Positions 3,279 to 49,903 of a stretch of DNA of 64,000 nucleotides are shown here, in pieces. The position numbers and the translations under genes were made by a program. Below the pieces are notes generated by a model. It made no database searches and had not been told where the DNA came from. It saw only the letters and a program-made list of their open reading frames with translations. Position 1 is the stretch's first letter. The number at the start of each line of letters is the position of its first letter. The stretch lies in assembly GCA_965112155.1 (NCBI GenBank), contig OZ218109.1. The stretch is one strand, 5' to 3'. This DNA is from Podarcis liolepis (Eukaryota).

Positions 3279-3530
3279 TTGTTGTTTAGTCGTTTGGTCG
3301 TGTCTGACTATTCGTGACCCCATGGACCAGAGCACGCCAGGCTCTGGCAGTCTTCCACTGCCTCCCGCAGTTTGGTCAGACTCATGTTTGTAGCTTCGAG
3401 AACACTGTCCAACCATCTCGACCTCTGTCGTCCCCTTCTCCTTGTGCCCTCCATCTTTCCCAACATCAGGGTCTTTTCCAGGGAGTCTTCTCTTCTCATG
3501 AGGTGGCCAAAGTATTGGAGCCTCAGCTCC
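3279..3530 (-). mobile_element. BovB (RTE) LINE 3' fragment
   Basis: Encodes LRLQYFGHLMRREDSLEKTLMLGKMEGTRRRGRQ. (CAA)n tail. TSD atcaaagaaat on both sides. Confidence 0.93.
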
Positions 3531-4437
3531 AATCAAAGAAATAGAAATATACAAATGAATAGGTCATTCATTTGCGGTGCTATCCTGGACTCTGCTACCA
3601 CTAACACACATACAAAGGGAAGCAAACCTTGCTTCCTGAAAAAAATATGTTCATTTGGAGTCATTAAATATATCTTCCTAGAATGAGGTGGAGAAAGGAC
3701 TCCCGGAAACAAAATGGCGTAAAAGGTAGATATTTGGTCTGATCTAGCAAGACTGTTCTTACATTCTTATGGGAATAGATCCCATAGCAATTTGTATAAA
3801 TGCAAAGTTTTTTTCAATGGAGACCATATCAGCAGTGAAATCTATACCTGTCCCATTATGTGCAGACCTCCTTCACATGAATTCTGCCCATCAGTTTTCA
3901 TTATCATAACCTATCCATACTTTTATTCTGTATTGGATATGTTGGAAACTGACTGAGTAGAAAAGTAGCAGCTCATAAAAACCATTTCCCCCCTGTTTGT
4001 TTGTTGTTGTTTTTTAAAGCAGCTAATAGAGCCCCAAACTCTTATTGAATAAACATTTCAATAAGAATGTGTGTGCACTAGGGAAAATTGGACTTTTCAT
4101 TATGTGCAAGAGAAATATAATACCACAAAATAAAAAGTAATAAATGATAACAACAACGAATATTGATCGCATTGACTTTGGGAGGGATTCTGCCACTTTG
4201 GTATTCTGTACAGGGCCTTGCCTACTGTTGGTGGTATTGGTAAATACATGCCAAGCGGCAAGATTTATTTGTTACGTTTACATCCCACATTTCAGCCAAG
4301 GAGCTCAGAGTGGCAATTTGAGCCACACAACCAACCTCTGAGTAAAGTCAAGCAAATACAGCGATATGTCCATTTGGGGAACTCAATAGCAGAGTTATTC
4401 AGCCTACATTTCCCACAGTCAAGATCAGCACACTATT

Positions 4438-5492
4438 TTGTTGTTGTTGTTTAGTCGTTTAGTCGTGTCTGACTCATAGCTGTCAACTTACAGATTTGAA
4501 AATAAGGGACCAGCAGCCAAAATAAGGGACCTGCAGCCTCACCTGTTCCAGGCACTCCAGTCTTCCTGTCCTCCTGCAGTCTGATCAAACTCATGCTGGT
4601 AGCTTCGAGAACACTGTCCAACCAACTTTGTAACCAGAAGTTAAACTGACTAGAATCTGAACCACATGCACTACAAGGCCTATGCAGCCTCAACTTACGA
4701 TGGCTCCCCGGCCTGGCTTTGCACTGCAAAGTTTGCAGCAGCACGTGCAACAAAATGGCGTCCAGCATTCAAAAAACCCCTCAGCTTGCATTAACTAGCC
4801 ACACCCAAGGCATGCAAGCTCCACCCCCCAGTCGTTGTTAGACTTCTTATTGGGTGAGCAACACAGCCAAGCAACACAGTTGGAGCCTCCCTCCTCCCTG
4901 GCCAGCAGGGAGAGGAGCTGTTTCCTTTGAAATTTAAGGGACATCATTTAAGGGACATTTAAGGGACATCCATCAATAAGGGCCAGCAGTGGGACATGGC
5001 GCTGGAATAAGGGACACCTGACAGCTATGGTCCGACTCTTCGCGACCCCATGGACCAGAGCATGCCAGGCACTCCTGTCTTCCACTGCCTTCGGCAGTTT
5101 GGTCAAACTCATGCTGGTCGCTTCGAGAACACTGTCCAACCATCTCGTCCTCTGTCATCCCCTTCTCCTTGTGCCCTCCATCTTTCCCAACATCAGGGTC
5201 TTTTCCAGGGAGTCTTCACTTCTCATAAGGTGGCCAACATATTGGAGCCTCAGCTTCAGGATCTGTCCTTCCAGTGAGCACTCATGGCTGATTTCCTTAA
5301 GAATAGATAGGTCTGATCTTCTTGCAGTCCATGGGACTCTCAAGAGTCTCCCCCAGCACCATAATTCAAAAGCATCAATTCTTCGGCGATCAGCCTTCTT
5401 TATGGTCCAGCTCTCACTTCCATACATCACCACTGGGAAAACCATAGCTTTAACCATACGGACCTTTGTTGGCAAGGTGATGTCTCTGCTTT
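4438..5492 (-). mobile_element. BovB LINE 3' fragment interrupted by a hAT element (4475-5029)
   Basis: Tail at 4438-4474 resumes at 5030. ORF 5155..5475 is the BovB ORF C-terminal region (VKAMVFPVVMYGSESWTIKKA..RIDAFELWCW). Confidence 0.92.
4475..5029. mobile_element. Non-autonomous hAT DNA transposon
   Basis: 11-bp TIRs catagctgtca / tgacagctatg. 8-bp TSD gtctgact (4467-4474) / gtccgact (5030-5037). Repeated aagggac motifs near both ends. Confidence 0.88.
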
Positions 5493-23038: not shown

Positions 23039-23800
23039 ATATCTCCCTATATACAAATGGATACCTTTTGCCTGTATAGAATACAGCCTTGCGACTTGAA
23101 CTCTAATTCGTGAATCATTTAAAATTAAAATGTAGACGAGTTATTGCATGCAGCAACCCACGTGTAAACAGGATTTGTGCTTCGTAGCCATGTTGTGGCA
23201 GGAATGGATCCTGCAGAGTTACCTGAGAGCTCAAACAAGCCTGTGGTAATGATTATTAAGAACACTGCAATTTAACTTCAGCTGGCTCCAATCCATTTCC
23301 CCCAGCCTTGTTTCCTCTAAGGCTTTATTAGCTACTGAACATTCATAAGCTTACTTCTGTTTTGACAAGACAGCAAATCTCTGCTTGCCACATTTTGCGC
23401 ACCTACCTTCCTTCTCTTCCTTCCCCACCGCAAATAGGTGTGAAATTTAAACCTTTTAACTCAAGACAGATTCAAGTCCAGACCAATTTATAAAGCAGAT
23501 GACACTTTGCAAAAATCAATTTTGGTGGTCAGACTATGAAGGTCAATGGAAATTACATATCATGAGAAAGGTAACAGGAACGTAGGAGTGAAGAAGGGAT
23601 CCGTTCGCAGGGGCTATTATGGAAATGTGACACCAAATAAGGCTTTAGTAGGGGGGTGGGTCTCATTTCAAATACTTACTGGCTCCACCCACAACAGAGG
23701 CAATAAGAGAGTGCTTCCTTATCAGAATTTGCCTTTGCCTGTGATTTATACGACACTTCCGTAGTGTTTCCATACTAAATGGAAAATATTCATACATTTA

Positions 23801-24271
23801 GTTATTGTTTAGTCGTTTAGTCGTGTCGGACTCTTCGTGACCCCATGGACCAGAGCACACCAGGCACTCCTGTCTTCCACTGCCTCCCGCAGTTTGGTCA
23901 AACTCATGCTGGTAGCTTCGAGAACACTGTCCCACCATCTCCTCCTCTGTCGTCCCCTTCTCCTTGTGCCCTCAATCTTTCCCAACATCAGGGTCTTTTC
24001 CAGGGAGTCTTCTCTTCTCTTCTCATGAGGTGGCCAAAGTACTGGAGCCTCAGCTTTATGATCTGTCCTTCCAGTGAGCACTCACGGATGATTTCCCTAA
24101 GAATGGATAGGTTTGATCTTCTTGCAGTCCACAGGACTCTCAAGAGTCTCCTCCAGCACCATAATTCAAAAGCATCAATTCTTTGGCAATCAGCCTTCTT
24201 TATGGTCCAGCTCTCACTTCCATACATCACTACTGGGAAAACCATAGCTTTAACTATACGGACCTTCGTTG
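23801..24271 (-). mobile_element. BovB LINE 3' fragment
   Basis: ORFs 23809..24081 and 23988..24332 give BovB C-terminal peptide, with a frameshift at a tcttc duplication. Confidence 0.93.
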
Positions 24272-25451: not shown

Positions 25452-25990
25452 TGTCAAGGCTGGAGTCAAACATGGGTCAGCAAGCAAGAAGCAGAGTTTG
25501 TCAGAGAAGTTATTCAAAGAAACAGCATACTGCTCAGCAACACTTCCCAGCAAGTCTTGCCCCTATAGAGCAGTTGCCAGGACTGACGATCTCCGCCTCC
25601 AGCTCCCTCTAAGGCTCCTCCTTTCTCAGATGTTTCCTAAGCAGTCTCAAACTGTGTCTGGACAGCTCTAATATCTGTTCTGCTCGATGCATCACTCTGC
25701 TTGTCCTTGGAGAGAATCAAGGAGAGGCAGGCTCCCTGTATTATTCTGAAGGCTCTTGTCCCCACTCCTCTGCTTCATCCTCTGAGTCTGAAATGCTCCC
25801 TGTCACAGGCTCTCCCTGTTGCCCCTTCAGCATCCAACAATTTTCCCTACACTTCTCCCTCTGACCTCTCCTTGGTGTTCCACCACCAATCCCAGGGCTC
25901 TGAGCCTTCCTCCTCTGGGGTTTCCCTTGAGGGTTGCCTGGCTGCTGCCTCCAACCACTCCTCATCCATCCAGCCAGCCAGTCCCTGACA
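25452..25990 (-). mobile_element. Solo LTR, related to 36564-37080
   Basis: TGTCA...TGACA termini. Reverse complement shares gaggaaggctcagagcc..ggattggtggtgg with the 36.6 kb copy. TSD not clear. Confidence 0.72.
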
Positions 25991-27639: not shown

Positions 27640-28096
27640 TGTCCGACTCTTCATGACCCCATGGACCAGAGCACACCAGGCACTCCTGTCTTCCACTGCC
27701 TCCTGCAATTTGGTCAAACTCATGCTGGTATCTTCGAGAACACTGTCCAACCATCTCGTCCTCTGCTGTCCCCTTCTCCTTGTGCCCTCCATCTTTCCCA
27801 ACATCAGGGTCTTTTCCAGGGAGTCTAGTCTTCTCATGAGGTGGCCAAAGTATTGGAGCCTCAGCTTTATGATCTGTCCTTCCAGTGAGTACTCAGGGCT
27901 GATTTCCTTAAGAATGGATAGGTCTGATCTTCTTGAGGTCCATGGGACTCTCAAGAGTCTCCTCCAGCACCATAATTCAAAAGCATCAATTCTTCAGCAA
28001 TCAGCCTTCTTTATGGTCCAGCTCTCACTTCCATACATCACTACTGGGAAAACCATGGCTTTAACTATAAGGACCTTTGTTGGCAAGGTGATGTCT
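27640..28096 (-). mobile_element. BovB LINE 3' fragment (tail missing)
   Basis: ORF 27631..27954 encodes BovB peptide. Confidence 0.92.
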
Positions 28097-28720: not shown

Positions 28721-29639
28721 GTCTAGGTTTTCTGCTCAGAAGGTAAACAGGGCATTATTAACACACCCAGAAGTTTTATCTTCTTTTATTTTTTAAAGGA
28801 CTGAGGAAAAACTTGGACAAGCTCAATGGTTTACTTAAAATATCCTGGTGACAACTATCTGTTCCGGTGTCCCTTTCCCCCAGCAGCCTTACATTACAGA
28901 GCACAGCAGCATGTATTAAATTGTTCAGGCAGTGTTTCTGGAAGCCAAGGTACAATAAGCAAACTCGAATTCCACAACCTATCTGCCTATAAACAGAAGA
29001 ATGTTCCCAGCACAAATTGTATCAGCACCACACTGACCAGGGCTCAACTGCTTAAATGAAGAGATGCACACAGCCCAATCCTAGATATATTCAGCAAGAA
29101 GAAAGCCTTGATGAGTTCAGTAGAGTTTACTCCTAAGTACGCATTTGATTTTAGCATTTGTCTCGCCTACAACAGCAGTGCTGCTTCCAATATTTACCAC
29201 AGGAAAATTGGGCCAAGAATCCTAATGTACAACATTCATCATATTTTGCACTGTGAAGCCTAATATTCAAAGAGCACATCTGTAAAACCATTAATACTGC
29301 TACTAATGTACTCTGCAGTCCACAAGGCCACCAAAGGACAGTGTAGGAAGTAGATAAATGGCCTTCATTTTATGTATTTTCACAGGAAATGTGGAAGCTC
29401 TGGCTTTTCTGTCAAGGCAGTTCAGGGAGATAGTAGCTAACAAAAAAGCATTTGGGTGACTTTGTTTTTTAAAAAAAGTTTTTAAAAGATATCTCACTGA
29501 TAAGGTCATTTTAAATTTTACTCTTAGCTTTGAAATGGATGCTGGACATTATTTGCTGTTCTAGTATTTTGAACTACAGACACTGTTTCTTGGATGTTAC
29601 TGTGAGCTGCTTGGATATCTAGCAGACCTGGGGGCACAT

Positions 29640-30079
29640 TTGTTGTTGTTTAGTCGTTTAGTCGTGTCCGACTCTTCGTGACCCCATGGACCAGAGCACG
29701 CCAGGCACTTCTGTCTTCCACTGCCTCCCACAGTTTGGTCAAACTCATGCTGGTAGTTTCGAGAGCACTATCCAACCATCTCGTCCTCTGTCGTCCCCTT
29801 CTCCTTGTGCCCTCCATCTTTCCCAACATCAGGGTCTTTTCCAGTGAGTCTTCTCTTCTCATGAGGTGGCCAAGGTATTGGAACCTCAGCTTCACGATCT
29901 GTCCTTCTAGTGAGCACTCAGGGCTAATTTCCTTCAGAATGGAGAGGTTTGATCTTCTTGCAGTCCATGGGACTCTCAAGAGTCTCCTCCAGCACCAGAA
30001 TTCAAAAGCATCAATTCTTCAGTGATCAGGCTTCTTTATGGTCCAGCTTTCACTTGCATACATCACTACTGGGAAAACC
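29640..30079 (-). mobile_element. BovB LINE 3' fragment, about 120 bp from the exon 9 donor
   Basis: ORF 29650..29979 ends VHGVTKSRTRLND; (CAA)n tail. Confidence 0.93.
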
Positions 30080-30198
30080 CAGTACATACATTCGAAAAAT
30101 TAAATAAATATTTCAGTATTCACAAATAACCTATTTTAACCATTCTATATTTTAAACACACATATATGCACACACATACACAAAAAAACTATACTTAC

Positions 30199-30590
30199 TC
30201 TTTCTCTGTCACAATGTATCCATATTCATCCTCTTTGGAAGGCTTGGCATCCAGCTGAAGGCCTTCTCCCAATTTTTTTTGAGTTTCTTCATAGACTGTT
30301 TTATCCTGAATCAAAGTATTCTTAATCCAGTGATGAAGCTCAGTCAGCTCTTGAGAGCTAGGTTCCGACTCAGCTTTCTTTTCAGCTATCAACTCCCTGG
30401 AGAATGTTTCGCTCTTCACATTTTCAACCCCAACCTTCACTTCCTCAGAGGAAGAGGAGGAGAGATCTAAATCCTCCGACTTCTTCATTTCTGATTTAAA
30501 AGATTCTTTGGACATAGGCTCCCTAAGAAGACTTTCAGTTGCGATATCCTCATTCAGGAAATCAAGCAGTTTTTTACTCAAATGGTTCTC
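30199..30590 (-). CDS. PTPRN2: PTPRN2 coding exon (exon 9 equivalent), includes KK|SE dibasic processing site (30474-30485), GVENVKS and EGLQL..GYIVT motifs
   Basis: Overlaps ORF 30195..30581. Acceptor ttttgtaatatag, donor gtaagt. 392 nt, phase 0 to 2. Motifs match phogrin (GVENVKSQTYS, EGLQLEVQPSEEEARGYIVT as recalled). Confidence 0.95.
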
Positions 30591-34203: not shown

Positions 34204-35246
34204 ACGAGGTGCATCTAAATTGTTTACAACAGTGCTATCAGTTAACCAAGTGAACAATTAAGCATCATGAAAATGCAGCTGTATCTTAAGGCAGCAGTGG
34301 TGGAATGAGTTAATTGCATCAGTTTGTTGCTTAGGACAAGGGTGGGCAATGCACAGGACTCCAAAGCCCAGTCACCTTTTCCTACAATCAGCCATCAGCT
34401 GGGTGTCCAGGAAGAGTGTACTGTTCCCACACTGCTAATAGCAACAGTAATATCGTGTAAATATGAAACACTGGGGAGCAGGCTTTAACCTACCCCCCAC
34501 AGTACTCCCAATCCAAGGAGGTTCACTGCCCCTATGTTGATAATAGCTGCATAGAGACAGCAGTTTGCAGTTTTAATGGGGAGGTAGATGTGTGGGAATT
34601 ACAGTCCCTAAACAGGTATCTCCTCCTTTAAATCATGGAGCAACCTGCACTCACCTAATTGCCCACAGCAAGTTGGGATTGCGTGAACAGCACCCATCCC
34701 ACCCTCTGAACACAATATAATCATGGCAGGAGAAAAGGGAAGCTACATGAACGGCCCTACTATTGGGCAAAGTGGCATAATCTCCTCAGGGAACAGATGC
34801 TGTGGGGCAGCAGTGGAACCCCCCTGCATGTTCCTCCTAAGCCCCTGCCCCCTGGGACCGGTCTCATCTGTTGGAGGACAGAATTGTGGGTTACACAACC
34901 TGTCCCTGTCCCCTAAACTAGCTTGCTGTGGTGTTGGCTGCTGTCCTGCCACTAGTGCTGAAGTAAGATTCGGCAGCCAGGCTGTTTGACTTCAGTATGT
35001 GGAATGGGCCAGGGAGGAGCCATCTTGTCCTTCACCTCAGGCAGCAAAATATCTTGGTCTGGGAAGCTAACGGTAAGGCAATGATAAGTGGAGGGGAGCT
35101 AGCAAGCAGCAGGGAGAATAGGGCAGTGAGCCGGCAGTGGGACAGGTGAGCAGGTAAGTTCCTCCTCTTTGCATCTTTGTGCAAGGCTGTCTTAAGACTG
35201 AATTCCTTTAGAGAGGAAAGGAAAGCTGCCATGGCGGATAAAGTAC

Positions 35247-35492
35247 CTTGTAAAGGGTAACCGGCGCTCATTAATCCCATCTCATAATCATCTTTTCCTT
35301 CGGCATCCACTCTCTTCTCTTCTGCCTCTCCTCCAACCTTCCCAGCGGCATTCTTCTTTTCTTCATCTGCATCAACAGCTTGAATGGCATCAGCAATGAT
35401 ATCTGCCATCTCGTCCAGCTCTAGCGGGCTCAACTTATCTACATCCACATGATGTTTCTTCAGGTCCCTCAGAACATCCTGAATAAATATTT
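35247..35492 (-). CDS. PTPRN2: PTPRN2 coding exon (exon 7 equivalent): (E)IFIQDVLRDLKKHHVDVDKLSPLELDEMADIIADAIQAVD...GYPLQ
   Basis: Acceptor cctttcccaag after a long pyrimidine tract, donor gtactt. 246 nt, phase 1-1. Resembles human [29 protein letters not shown]. Confidence 0.9.
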
Positions 35493-36563
35493 CTTGGGAA
35501 AGGAGGGAGGGAGGGAGGAGAAACTTGATTACTTATGAAAAGTCTGATGGTATGTGCAAGGAAAAGAGAAACAAAGCATTGTAGTCTCTGCTCCAGTCCT
35601 CAGTAGGAGCTATTTAATTATCTATGAAGTCTCGACTACATTATTCTGTGCTAATCTGTATTCATAAATATAGCCTTGGTAATGTTTTTTTCTCTCTCTC
35701 CTCTTATTCAAATGTGTTTATTGAATAGTTTCAATGTTACTAATTCATGGGATTATCTTCTTATTTGAATCAGTAATTAGATCACTTTTCTCACTGGACA
35801 TGCCTTGCCCTACTGAAACAATTGATTTGGGATAAATTAGTGGCGAAACTTTTCCCAGACCAATATGGCTTATCCAGGAAGGCCTGTATCCCGAGGACAA
35901 AAAAAGTATTTATTTTATCACGTTAGTGGTCTCTCCCTCCCCTCCCCATTACAAACCCTATATCAAGACTTCCTAACAAAATCAACTTATGCTGTACTAA
36001 AGCTGCTTAACTATAGAAATAAATTATGATTACACTCAGTCAACCATAATGTAGTTTTTGCAGAGTAAAAATAGAGGACATATCAATACAATTACATATA
36101 AGAAACATGCAGTCTGCTGAAAAAAATAAAAGGACCAAAGCTATTTTTCTACTAGGTGTCCCCAAAAGAAGCAGAGACTGTAAATAAATCACCACCACTG
36201 AATTATGAAGCAGCAATATCAATTTGACTTACCCAGTCATGTAAAGGGCTTAACTGGAGGGTGGGGGAGGCAATGGGGAGATCTCAAGAGTTTCATGGCC
36301 CATTCCTGTGAAGTCTATCCAGTACTGGCCATGAAACAGAGAGCTCTCATTGGAATCTTATCATTCTACCCGACACAAATTCCCAGGTGGAGCTTCCCAC
36401 AGTCTCCAAACAGGACAGGTGGTTCAAATATCTACAATGAACCAATCAAAATGCAAGGTGCACCAGCCAACAAAATTGCCTTAAAACTCTCCACTCTCCA
36501 CTCAGAAGTTCCCAACTTGAAGAGACAAGGAGCATCACAAGGAGCAGCTCAGAGTTTTAAAAC

Positions 36564-37080
36564 TGTCATGGACTGGCTGGATGTGGAGGAGTGTGGGAGG
36601 CACCAGCCAAGGAACCCCCAGGGGAGGAAGGCTCAGAGCCAGGGGATTGGTGGTGGGACAACGATGAGTTATCAGAGGGGGAAGGAGCAGACAGGGAGGA
36701 GAAGGTGACAGAAGCAGAAGAGGTAACAGGGTTTAGTGAACAGGAAGAAGCTGCAGCAGAGCACAGTTCAGTCTCTGAGCAGAATCCCGGGAGTCTCGCT
36801 CTCCTGCTGTGACCAGCTCCCCTCCCTTCTGGTCTCCTAGAACACACAGAGAAATGAAACAGGAAGCGTAGAGGGTTGCTGTGCACAAACGAAGCCTGAG
36901 ACTGTGTGGGAAAGACCCTGGAAAGGAGGAGTCCTACTGCAACTGCTTCATCGTGGTAAGACCTCCTGGAAACCACTAGGCTGAGTTGTGGTTTGTTTCC
37001 CTGAATAAAGAGTTAACTTCACCGACCTCGGGTGCATTATTGCTTTGTTGGCGACCTATGCCTGACTCCCAGCCCTGACA
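36564..37080 (+). mobile_element. Solo LTR (Gypsy/ERV type) carrying a decayed acidic reading frame
   Basis: TGTCA...TGACA termini, aaac TSD, AATAAA near 37004. Confidence 0.8.
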
Positions 37081-44595: not shown

Positions 44596-44731
44596 CAGGC
44601 ATAGGCAAACTCGGCCCTCCAGATGTTTTGGGACTACAACTCCCATCATCCCTGACCACTGGTCCTGTTAACTAGGGATGATGGGAGCTGAAGTCCCAAA
44701 ACATTTGGAGGGCCTAGTTTGAGGAAACCTG
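44596..44731. mobile_element. Palindromic hAT MITE 50 nt from the exon 6 donor
   Basis: Hairpin core and a perfect 8-bp TSD gtctagaa. Confidence 0.9.
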
Positions 44732-44781
44732 GTCTAGAACAATAAGTGAGCACTCATACGAAGATGAAATGGATTCCTTAC

Positions 44782-45235
44782 CGTCTACTGGAGTTAGAGG
44801 GGCCTTTGTATTGCTCTGGACAGAACCAGGCACCAGTCCAGATCCAGGCCTCCTTATGAATGGTGGCCTCATCTCAATATCTCCTGGTTTCTCTTTCAAC
44901 ATTGTTCCATCAAGATGGTCAGCCTGAGGAAGCTTGAGCCGATTGGTATAGGGAGGAGACACTTTAGTCCTACTAACAGGAGAGCTCCCGTCAAGATTTT
45001 TTGCCGCAACTTTCTGAGAGATATATGCATTTAATGCCGCCAACAGAGCTTTTCTGTCAAATCCGTCATTTGGCTTTAGTGGGAATTTATCTCTCTGTGG
45101 TTGGCTGAAGGTTCTCACTGGGATGTTCTCAGTATATTTTGAATGGGCTGCTGCTGAATGGGTTAAAGCAGGAGCTTTTCCTTTGGAGTTCTGCACCATG
45201 TAGTTGATGATGGTGTCAGGTGGAACGTTATCAAC
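44782..45235 (-). CDS. PTPRN2: PTPRN2 coding exon (exon 6 equivalent): VDNVPPDTIINYMVQ...FDRKALLAALNAYISQK...PLTPVD
   Basis: Acceptor tttccttctag, donor gtaagg. 454 nt, phase 0 to 1. FDRKALLAALNAY resembles human VDRHHLMAALSAY. Confidence 0.92.
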
Positions 45236-46200: not shown

Positions 46201-46562
46201 TGCCAGGGACTGGACAGAGGAGGAATGGTGGCGACCGCCTCCTCCCCAGCCTGAACCTTGCAGAGAAGAGGAAGACAGTATAGATTTACAACAGTGGTTT
46301 GCGGGAGGTCACAGCTCAGAGGCAGATGAGGGGCAAAGTTGGGAGATAATGGGAGACACGTCATCACTAGAAAGCATTCCAGACACCCCTTCCCCCAGAA
46401 CGCGATGAGCATTGGAAGTAGGAGAGCAAAGAGCTCGAAGACAAATGGCCCTAAGCAGCCACCATAAGGTGGGTGGGGCTGCTGACAACTGAGGAGAGAA
46501 GGGGGTGTGCCTGGAGATTACTCAGAGCAACGCCATTACTCCAAGAGGCTGCAATAAAAGAC

Positions 46563-46609
<47 letters not shown>

Positions 46610-47532
46610 TTATTTGTACCCCGCCCATCTGGCTGGGTTTCCCCAGCCACTCTGGGCGGCTTCCAAAAATACAGTAAAATATCACAGATTAAAAACTTTC
46701 CTGAACAGGGCTGCCTTAAGATGTCTTCTGAATGTCAGGTAGTTATTTATCGCTTTGACATCTGATGGGAGGGCGTTCCACAGGGCGGGCGCCACTACCG
46801 AGAAGGCCCTCTGCCTGGTTCCCTGTAGCTTTGCTTCTTGCAATGAGGGAACTGCCAGAAGGCCCTCGGCGCTGGACCTCAGCGTCCGGGCAGAACGATG
46901 GGGGTGGAGACCCTCCTTCAGGTATACTGGGCCGAGGCCGTTTAGGGCTTTAAAGGTCAACACCAGCACTTTGAATTGTGCTCGGAAACGTACTGGGAGC
47001 CAATGTAGGTCTTTCAAGACTGGTGTTATGTGGTCTCGGCGGCCGCCCCCAGTCACCAGTCTAGCTGCCGCATTCTGGATTAGTTGTAGTTTCCGAGACA
47101 CCTTCAAAGGTAGCCCCAGGTAGAGCGCATTGCATTAGTCCAAGCGGGAGATAACCAGAGCATGCACCACTCTGGCGAGACAGTCCGCGGGCAGTTAGGG
47201 TCTCAGCCTGCATACCAGGTGGAGTTGGTAGACAGCTGCCCTTGATACAGAATTGACCTGCGCCTCCATGGACAGCTGTGAGTCCAAAATGACTCCCAGG
47301 CTGCGCACCTGGTCCTTCAGGGGCACAGTTACCCTATTCAGGACCAGGGAGTCCTCCACACCAGCCCGCCCCCTGTCCCCCAAAAACAGTACTTCTGTCT
47401 TGTCAGGATTCAACTTCAATCCATTAGCCGCCATCCATCCTCCAACCGCCTCCAGGCACATTGGTAAGAACTTGTCTATTCCTGGCAGTCTACCATGTGG
47501 GGGGGGGGGGTCGGATTCCCTGATGCCTGACA
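46201..47532 (+). mobile_element. Solo LTR split by an L2 insertion
   Basis: Starts tgccagggactgg, ends cctgaca. Perfect 5-bp TSD catgc (46196-46200 / 47533-47537). AATAAA just before the L2 insert. Confidence 0.8.
46564..47458 (-). mobile_element. L2 LINE 3' fragment (~0.9 kb), apparently young
   Basis: ORFs give WMAANGLKLNPDKTE, RSLGVILDSQLSM and LQLIQNAAARLV..HITPVLKDLHWLPV, all L2 ORF2 motifs. (TAA)n tail. Confidence 0.95.
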
Positions 47533-49494
47533 CATGCTGGCAGCTTCTAGGAGACTTCACCCCCAGAGGTGCACTCCATTGTCTCTTGAGACAGATGGAT
47601 GCCAACAATAAGACAACATTAGTTACAATCTACCTTGCAATTTGAGAAATGCTAAATTTTGATGAATTCCCCCCACCCCCCAAAAAACCCCAGCTTCAAT
47701 TTAATAAGCCTTATGGAGACATCTGCGCCCCCTTCCCTGCCCACTGGTATGGAGAGACAGCAGGTGACTTGGAAACACACCCGATCTTGATGTGTTTGAT
47801 CAGACCTACAATGACGTGCAAATGCAATTTGAAACACAGTGGGCGGAAATGACCTTGCTGCATTTTAAGCCGATAATGTGTACACAGCCACACTTGCAGA
47901 GGAATCGAGCGCCCGTGGGATGCCACGAAAGTGAACAGGAGGAAGACTGGTCCTCAGCTCGGTTGCACAGCTCAGTTATGCAGTGCAATGCTTCCTGATG
48001 AAATCGAAAAGCACCCATACCGACTCGGAATCCTAATATCAGCGACATTTGTTCCCCTGCGCCAGTGCTAGGAACCTTATGCCAAAGAATATTTCTACTG
48101 CCTTATTATACTGAGCAAGTTCCTGGGGAATTGGCATTCATGCAAAGCATCCTGTGAGCTATTATTATGATAATGATAAACCATAAATGGCTTAAGATAA
48201 TAACCTATTCTTCTCAAGCCCTTTAAGATTCATAACTCCTTTATCTGTATCCACAATTGTTGTTCAACAATTGGATGTTACTGTACGTCCATAAAATAAG
48301 GGAGAAATAAACTGAATTGCAAGGTGCTACTTATGCTGTACATTGAATTTGAGCAAAGTGATGTGGAAATCGCAAAGACAAAGAGGCATTCATATGTTGC
48401 TGGTTTTTTTACAAATGCAAAATAGTTCTTGAAGTCTAAAGAACAGAGGTCGCCCAAGGAGCAACACAGAGAGTTGCACATACACAACTAAAGATTTCCC
48501 TCCCAGGCCCATGAAACTCCATGCTCCCCCACCTAGGCTCCTGAAAGTCAGAGACCCTCTATAATGCCTGGCTGTGGGGAAAGGAAAATCACTGTCCTCT
48601 CTACCTGTAAGCAGTCTTTGGACGTCAACACTGTACTCTGAAAACACAACCAAATTCAAACAGCCAACAAAAGTAATGAAGACCCTTTCCTTTATACAAA
48701 CCTTACGAGACAGTTTGCAAAAAGGTTGACCCGGATAATCAAAGGTGGCTTTTTTTTAAAAAAAAACCTCACACAGCTACTCGAAAAGTGCCTGAACACT
48801 CAAATATTGAAGAGGATTTGCGATTTCCCTGAGTCTCCTGTAAACAAACAAGCCCATCAAGATGAAGAACACAGACACTTCAAGCAGCCTTATACAAATT
48901 GGGTACAAGTGTCAATCGCAGGCTAAGCTGGTATCAGGAGAGGACCAGCAGTCTCTCAGCAGCTTGACAGGTCACAACACTGGCAGACCGGGATGCTCTT
49001 TGGAAATTCCTAATTAAAAATATGGCATCAACAGCAAGTAAGCCTATTTTGAAAGCACCCTCATTTCTGACAACAAATGTAAAGTCAAAGAGAGAGAAAA
49101 AGACTAGAGCCACATACAGCCTGAAGTTCCAGTATTAACGTTAAAACCATCTTTGACCGTGATTCACTATGGATGTAGACCTGCATTGCCCTGTTTTTGG
49201 CATCTTTGTGATGAATTGTCTCTGTACTTTCCATTGGAAAACAAGAGAGGAAAGTTAATTCTATGTTATACTGGAAGTGCCGGGATGGATTGCACTGGAT
49301 TGTATCCCTTGACGAAAGCTTGCCAGGTCTGATTTTAGTAAAGAACTTTAGACCAGGAGATAAAATCTAACGCAGTCCTTCTTGGTACTTCTCACCCTTG
49401 TTTCATAGCAAGCTTCTACAATCGTCAGGTGGGGGAGAAATTCCTAGCAATAAATGGAACGCAATAGGTCAGGATATGTATGCACAACAGAAAG

Positions 49495-49903
49495 GTTGTT
49501 GTTGTTGTTTAGTCGTGTCCGACTCTTCATGACCCCATAGACCAGAGCACGCCAGGCACTCCTGTCTTCCACTGCCTCCCACAGTTTGGTCAAACTCATG
49601 CTGGTAGCTTCGAGAACACTATCCAACCATCTCGTCCTCTGTCATCCCCTTCTCCTTGTGCCCTCCATCTTTCCCAACATCAGGGTCTTTTCCAGGGAGT
49701 CTTCTCTTCTCATAAGGTGGCCAAAGTATTGGAGCCTCAGCTTCATGATCTGTCCTTCCAGTGAGCACTCAGGGCTGATTTCCTTAAGAATGGATAGGTT
49801 TGATCTTCTTGCAGTCCATGGGACTCTCAAGAGTCTCCTCCAGCACCATAATTCAAAAGCATCAATTCTTCGGCGATCAGCCTTCTTTATGGTCCAGCTC
49901 TCA
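49495..49903 (-). mobile_element. BovB LINE 3' fragment
   Basis: ORFs 49642..49830 and 49444..49626; (CAA)n tail. Confidence 0.93.

Follow-up and report, generated by a model that had tools for sequence, protein, structure and literature searches.

What protein, if any, do the solo LTRs of a lizard genome spell out? The window analysed here, a stretch of 64,000 nucleotides of Podarcis liolepis (contig OZ218109.1, assembly GCA_965112155.1), contains an LTR at 36564-37080 in which a preliminary description had read an acidic peptide with SPRT and SLRL blocks, and for which it had offered two origins, an accessory ORF in U3 or a C-terminal extension of Pol/integrase. Taken jointly, it is very probable that the peptide in the window LTRs is the C-terminal tail of an integrase, read through the PPT into the 3' LTR, and that these LTRs are dead fossils of old Ty3/gypsy chromovirus lineages. 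The peptides and codons that had been read by the preliminary description were present where it placed them, with two frameshifts and one stop codon. The features of the window were as follows.

36564..37080, plus strand: solo LTR of family A, TGTCA...TGACA, 517 bp, flanks AAAAC / AAACT
36565..36937, plus strand: decayed frame from LTR nucleotide 2, likely the U3-encoded end of an integrase
36568..36570, plus strand: in-frame ATG, likely an internal Met and not a start codon
36833..36844, plus strand: SPRT motif, common to families A and C
36887..36904, plus strand: KRSLRL basic motif (SLRL at 36893), a candidate HMGN-like nucleosome-binding motif
37004..37009, plus strand: AATAAA polyadenylation signal, which fixes the orientation of the LTR
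25452..25990, minus strand: diverged LTR of family-A type, beginning TGTCAGGG in the same frame, no ATG
46201..47532, plus strand: solo LTR of the sister family C (RDWTEEEWW...SPRT), perfect TSD CATGC
3279-3531, 5030-5485, 23794-24271, 27640-28096, 29636-30079 and 49489-49903: six copies of one retroposon 3' fragment, 91-96% alike, within 47 kb

The flanks of the LTR at 36564-37080 match as a target-site duplication at 4 of 5 bases. Its frame reads VMDWLDVEE at 36565-36591 and is disrupted by a frameshift near 36592, with WEAPAKEPP... beginning at 36594, by a second frameshift between about 36800 and 36833, and by a stop at 36869-36871; the register is identical to that of the pol read-through in young relatives and in family C. 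The diverged minus-strand copy has SPRT at 25713 and SLRL at 25653, its flanks (TGACG / AGGAG) form no target-site duplication, and it matched the family-A DNA profile, which itself contains this copy, with E 1.6e-105. The copy at 46.4 kb, which had been taken to hold the same peptide, does have SPRT (at 46391), but it belongs to the sister family C and is without SLRL. A later insertion of ~900 bp splits this LTR at about 46565-47457; it is a minus-strand 3' fragment of a non-LTR retroposon with a (TAA)n tail and a weak RVT_1 match (E 0.026), and it lies just past the family C AATAAA. Exon-like open frames of a host gene were also seen on the minus strand (44714-45235, 35032-35532 and 30195-30590); they gave no Pfam match and presumably resemble the N-terminal part of receptor phosphatases of the IA-2/phogrin type. 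Relative to that gene, the two LTRs at 36.5 and 46.2 kb would be intronic and antisense.

The peptide in the window LTR is beyond chance, as 435 exact genomic matches were found to its first 17 nt and none to the control. Family A is large and old, with 3780 first-look DNA candidates genome-wide, 40 of which were scored. The same acidic, Trp-rich frame is readable in many copies, and one of them (L028) retains an unbroken frame of 176 aa from ATG to stop. In 14 aligned copies, the S, P and T of the SPRT motif never varied and its R hardly did. The spacing of exactly 16 residues between SPRT and SLRL was true for the two copies first compared but is not fixed family-wide: among 58 family-A loci it was 15 in eight, 16 in five and 17 in one, and unreadable in 44. 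Family C comprised 2606 candidates by DNA and 6511 by protein. Among 142 oriented loci (a few fetched twice), 31 were complete at both ends, carried an AATAAA-like signal and were flanked by a 5-bp duplication in which no more than one base differed, 13 of these duplications being perfect; these 31 loci are solo LTRs. Because the LTR termini form an inverted repeat of 12 nt, DNA transposons (a MITE or a Ginger type) were weighed as well, and were rejected on the AATAAA, the PPT and the upstream integrase. At five unrelated sites, directly 5' of family C LTRs (L250, L251, L256, L283 and L285), ~24 nt of LTR start and ~25 nt of internal end with the PPT precede a whole LTR. This looks like repeated deletion of the entire interior where the LTR start shares a short homology with the stretch preceding the PPT, a modified route to a solo LTR.

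Young elements, with LTR pairs 96.6-100% alike, were obtained by a gypsy integrase search of the genome. Of 20 fetched, 17 in which the PPT is followed directly by TGTCAGG formed the junction set, and three were excluded (one without an LTR pair, one tandem duplication and one mis-parsed). The frame from LTR nucleotide 2 was open for 99-221 aa in 16 of these 17 young chromoviruses, and in 13 it was continuous with at least 526 aa of pol, which answers the question, raised by the preliminary description, whether pol runs in frame into the 3' LTR. The data showed that in young full-length relatives pol crosses the PPT and runs about 100-220 codons into the LTR from nucleotide 2. The order PR-RT-RH-IN-SH3 was seen in all three pols scanned, and Chromo scored in two of them. 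In one young family (VMAW), the LTR begins with TGTGATGG and has an ATG at nucleotide 5, as in family A; this ATG lies inside a continuous pol of 1270-1564 aa (L320-L323). A Podarcis muralis pol in UniRef, automatically named, contains the whole VMAW tail with 87% identity.

Young elements (13 of 15 and 3 of 3) have, just after the 5' LTR, a self-complementary primer site of 9-11 nt that pairs with a site inside the LTR. Measured in unbroken copies, this internal site precedes the pol stop by 18-38 nt in three types, whereas in the VMAW type it follows the stop by about 40-45 nt. In Tf1, the self-primer site marks the start of the RNA. By this precedent the frame would lie upstream of the transcription start and take up almost the whole of U3. 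Because U3 would then be present only at the 3' end of the full-length RNA, a solo LTR would be unable to express the peptide from its own promoter, and the tail would be translated solely from the 3' end of the full-length RNA. Self-priming is known for the Tf1/sushi group (PMC6317226). RNA matching the internal part and 3' LTR of a young family amounted to 71-189 reads per raw run (three raw runs and one contig set); the reads were mostly 90-99% alike and, in two bulk runs, mostly sense over pol, the runs coming possibly from a related species. No RNA data set was listed as containing this family. Among these 71-189 reads per run there was no read joint into U3, at a depth too thin to count.

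The genome is rich in young LTR elements with open frames, including chromovirus families, copia elements and endogenous retroviruses with gag, pol and env. Several young chromovirus families have from tens to more than 100 listed copies each, and contig C20 is enriched in young LTR elements. One short element (L134:3028-6624) has 411-bp LTRs 99.5% alike and a single frame of 943 aa that starts right after the 5' LTR and extends 19 codons into the 3' LTR. In a frog (Leptobrachium), a pol known as protein alone (P0013) continues ~100 aa past the chromodomain through a GRGVMS junction that resembles a PPT-LTR boundary, hinting at read-through in amphibians too.

Integrase remnants were found directly upstream of family C LTRs with a pattern of PPT plus LTR start, and a chromodomain query confirmed them. 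The chromodomain was fused in frame via the PPT to the LTR peptide on C18, on C21 and in a duplicated C7 cluster, and the junction was frameshifted or interrupted on C4, C12, C14 and C20. At one locus (L290) the chromodomain ends ...RPKPPGWEEEGSGEGAD and is followed across the junction by VRDWAEEE, with no frameshift, and at another (L274) RH-IN-chromodomain is retained upstream of a family C LTR. All family C parents were dead, with no 5' LTR in the fetched stretches. Related dead lineages (L329, L308, L312, L313 and L318) had the same PPT-LTR junction, and a chromodomain tree of 66 columns, with weak resolution, grouped the dead DW-type parents (93/80). On C7 at 78.8-79.8 Mb, ~20 near-identical decayed chromovirus 3' ends lie 30-90 kb apart (L246-L249, L292-L310 and L317); this array is a large tandem segmental duplication. 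A second cluster with an LTR-like start lies on C7 at 93.5-94.6 Mb.

No family-A LTR was found beside pol, either in four PPT pattern searches (0, 22, 54 and 8 matches) or in the flanks of the 142 oriented loci. The early patterns missed the GTGA-ending tract of family C, which a later pattern caught; 42 of the 54 matches were examined, and the remaining 12 all fall in the C7 cluster at 93.9-94.6 Mb. Two sets of candidate parents were rejected. On C2, two family-A LTRs separated by 2 kb were considered as one element but proved to be two insertions 71% alike, and twenty loci from an rve search were retroviruses, copia elements and one unrelated element, none with these LTRs.

The link from family A to family C was examined with profiles. 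The profiles of the two families matched with a probability of 93% (E 2.8e-7, 84 columns), and the families have the DW start and SPRT in common. A bridging copy (L253) scored 16.9 bits on A and 14.2 on C, with none of 100 shuffles as high. Protein homology between single copies was weak: family C copies gave 2.6-9.5 bits, beating all shuffles in five of seven, and the C profile exceeded all shuffles in only one of seven A copies. These comparisons indicate that families A and C are homologous. The fusion is seen in C; by this homology family A, of which no parent was found, would have the same order of chromodomain, PPT and LTR in one frame. The preliminary proposal of a Pol/integrase extension thus holds directly for family C and the young relatives, and for family A by homology only; for family A specifically, we hold it with high confidence that the peptide would be an integrase tail. 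The family-A profile did not recognise the tails of young families, so that what is shared with them rests on register and layout, not on sequence. A likeness noted by eye between SEPGDWWWD in family A and SEPSYWWD in the tail of L173 gained no support from the profile test. At L325, L328, L330 and L333, EEWW...P-like motifs were seen by eye upstream of the PPT, whereas in A and C they lie inside U3, as though the border of the LTR had shifted relative to the coding frame; homology of this motif across lineages was unsupported by the profile test.

Selection on the frame was measured by pairwise comparison of real copies, without a consensus and with transitions weighted; plain NG86 values were discarded because transition bias depresses them in every frame. 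The sample for family A was 49 of 66 copies, 37 of them in groups, with 17 dropped as truncated or too diverged, the window's copy at 25452-25990 among these; for family C it was 37 copies, 32 in groups. The net dN/dS between subfamilies was 0.42 (0.21-0.76) for family A and 0.32 (0.19-0.54) for family C, subfamilies having been clustered on the same columns as those tested. Within subfamilies the values were 0.82 (0.71-0.96) for A and 0.92 (0.71-1.19) for C, and the other two frames gave 1.5-3.3. In a weak indel test, the increase per pair between groups was 0.63-0.80 for frame-keeping indels, compared with 0.42-0.44 for those that break the frame. Since the extra divergence between subfamilies reflects the source elements, the frame was coding in the parents, under moderate constraint. 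The data showed that it was under purifying selection between source subfamilies and decayed near-neutrally after insertion, so that selection on protein in the parent elements, which had been suspected from synonymous codon differences, was borne out in both families and in this frame only. Among young copies, 12 of 13 pairs gave the U3 tail a dN/dS of 0.11-0.59, where the pol core had 0.08-0.16; the exception was one close pair with 1.13 on four changes. Three close VMAW pairs gave 1.05-2.1 on five to seven changes.

It is conceivable that the read-through is real and the tail has no job, pol having lost its stop, the frame needing to be open no further than the following stop codon, and the composition following that of a purine-rich U3. 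The tails of distant lineages do not align, they contain internal duplications and range in length between about 100 and 220 aa, and their dN/dS exceeds that of the pol core by a factor of 2-5; past the chromodomain there was no solved-structure match, and the tail gave no Pfam family above cut-off and no Atlas match. However, a stop right behind the chromodomain would be free for an idle tail, and the long frame is nevertheless kept in the old lineages and in 16 of 17 young elements; amino-acid changes are suppressed in the tail, and by eye one lineage after another shows an acidic stretch and then an Arg-rich end. We regard an idle tail as unlikely, though as a serious rival.

The other origin first offered for the peptide, a separate accessory ORF in the U3 of family A with its own ATG and expressed from spliced RNA, is very unlikely. 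Its models, HIV nef and MMTV sag, are retroviral protein-coding sequences inside U3 and separate genes with their own start. Coding inside U3 is the likeness to them; in contrast, the lizard frame is continuous with pol (in family A, by homology, it would be), and the parents are chromoviruses, not retroviruses. Most family-A copies do have an ATG at LTR nucleotide 5, L028 runs from such an ATG to a stop, the frame was selected, and no parent of A was found to exclude a separate gene. However, the homologous family C has AGG at that codon and is fused to the chromodomain, AGG is also present in copies of A type (L020, L213 and the copy at 25452-25990), and in the VMAW family pol runs straight through this ATG. 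Among the 1017 and the 1813 candidates of protein searches with L028, not one was a stand-alone homolog, and nothing came up at near or longer lengths; ten profile matches, all single-member clusters, look like gene predictions over decayed LTRs. An ATG that is not conserved, that is an internal Met in VMAW and that is replaced in a pol-continuous family C speaks against the nef/sag type of ORF.

A DNA-level explanation of the conserved blocks, as promoter or enhancer motifs with an illusory peptide, is extremely improbable: U3 is the promoter, and the final codons of the L173 and L181 types coincide with a TTAAG/TATTAAG box that lies ~33 nt ahead of the self-primer site, but the synonymous excess is confined to one frame, pol is physically continuous with that frame, and the frame-specific dN/dS largely rules out the nucleotide-level motifs that the preliminary description had named as its own counter-explanation. 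The extreme end of the L173/L181 frame is probably dual-use, serving as coding sequence and box.

In the integrase-tail reading, the pol frame would run from the chromodomain across the PPT into the 3' LTR, and the tail would be an acidic, likely disordered spacer ending in a Ser-Pro site and an Arg-rich motif. Across lineages the layout of acidic spacer, Ser-Pro site and Arg-rich end was read by eye. In family A the basic motif occurs as KRSLRL, RRSLRL, RHSLRL, RCSLRL and QRSLRL. The motif was read 29 times in the 58 family-A loci, two of these reads being chance hits; literal RRSLRL accounted for three of the 29, and the other codons at the second place were mostly Arg codons or one CpG-type transition away. 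The VMAW tail ends RRSARLKA, with RRSARL in six of seven copies. RRSxRL is not general, since family C and the L173, L181 and L185 types lack it and have Arg-rich ends of other kinds. A match of the tail to the Pfam family YL1 was below cut-off and probably compositional.

HMGN proteins have the consensus RRSARLSA, arginine-rich relatives of it in Dsup and Dot5 bind the nucleosome acidic patch, and the three motif arginines of Dot5 are required for nucleosome binding (PMC13347269). The RRSARL of VMAW and the R-x-S-L-R-L of family A resemble these motifs, the likeness to HMGN being a six-residue match only and probably convergent. No paper pairing 'HMGN-like motif' with 'integrase' was found in the literature searched. 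From this likeness we put forward tentatively, as a possibility with somewhat less than even prospects, that the tail is a second chromatin tether or a nuclear import signal beside the chromodomain; in lineages with RRSARL or R-x-S-L-R-L, a tether would most likely act via the H2A-H2B acidic patch. More doubtful is the fuller proposal that U3 serves vertebrate chromoviruses as a second coding layer for a fast-evolving integrase tail, in which, in at least two lizard lineages, a terminal HMGN-type RRSARL/RRSLRL would clamp the integration complex to the nucleosome acidic patch under the control of a phosphorylated Ser-Pro site nearby; such a second targeting module would be a vertebrate counterpart of the plant CR motif.

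Among known systems, the V-clade (Tf1/sushi) is the nearest in structure. Its chromodomain at the integrase C-terminus was seen in the family C parents and the young relatives, and its TG...CA termini with a 5-bp duplication are perfect in the window copy of C and 4 of 5 in that of A. Sushi-ichi and Amn-san share the chromodomain and PR-RT-RH-IN with the lizard elements, which on structure are putative members of the clade. In contrast, a U3-encoded pol tail of 100-220 aa was not found described for vertebrate chromoviruses in the full-text literature or in the available portions of PMC3601003, PMC6317226, PMC4131045 and PMC2774666, although older Tf1/sushi papers or Repbase may mention it. 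The preliminary description had known of no account of coding LTRs of this kind; within the literature searched this stands for vertebrate chromoviruses, but LTR coding as such has precedents in plants. In CRM group A, gag-pol runs through the PPT into the 3' LTR and the LTR-encoded part is a putative targeting domain (PMC3059260), and several Bingo elements of Beta vulgaris extend gag-pol into the 3' LTR (PMC3605345). The frame crosses the PPT there as it does in the lizard elements. However, in CRM the CR motif replaces the chromodomain, whereas in the lizard elements a Pfam Chromo lies upstream of the PPT and the LTR adds an acidic-to-basic tail; host and clade differ as well. The lizard elements are CRM-like in layout and are not members of CRM. 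Within the literature searched, there appears to be no account of such read-through in vertebrates, of its spread over several lineages of one genome, of the selection on it or of the HMGN-like motif, and a look-up by sequence was negative too.

The integrase-tail reading explains why thousands of supposedly non-coding lizard LTRs resemble broken genes, and accounts for 'hypothetical proteins' in Podarcis annotations. Orphan solo LTRs become assignable to chromoviruses from the reading frame alone, and a record of integrase-tail evolution is kept for families whose internal parts are nearly gone. The layout of plant CRM elements, with the integrase end in the LTR, is extended to vertebrates. 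If it is true that the Arg-rich end binds the acidic patch, this would give a simple answer to how vertebrate chromoviruses choose chromatin.
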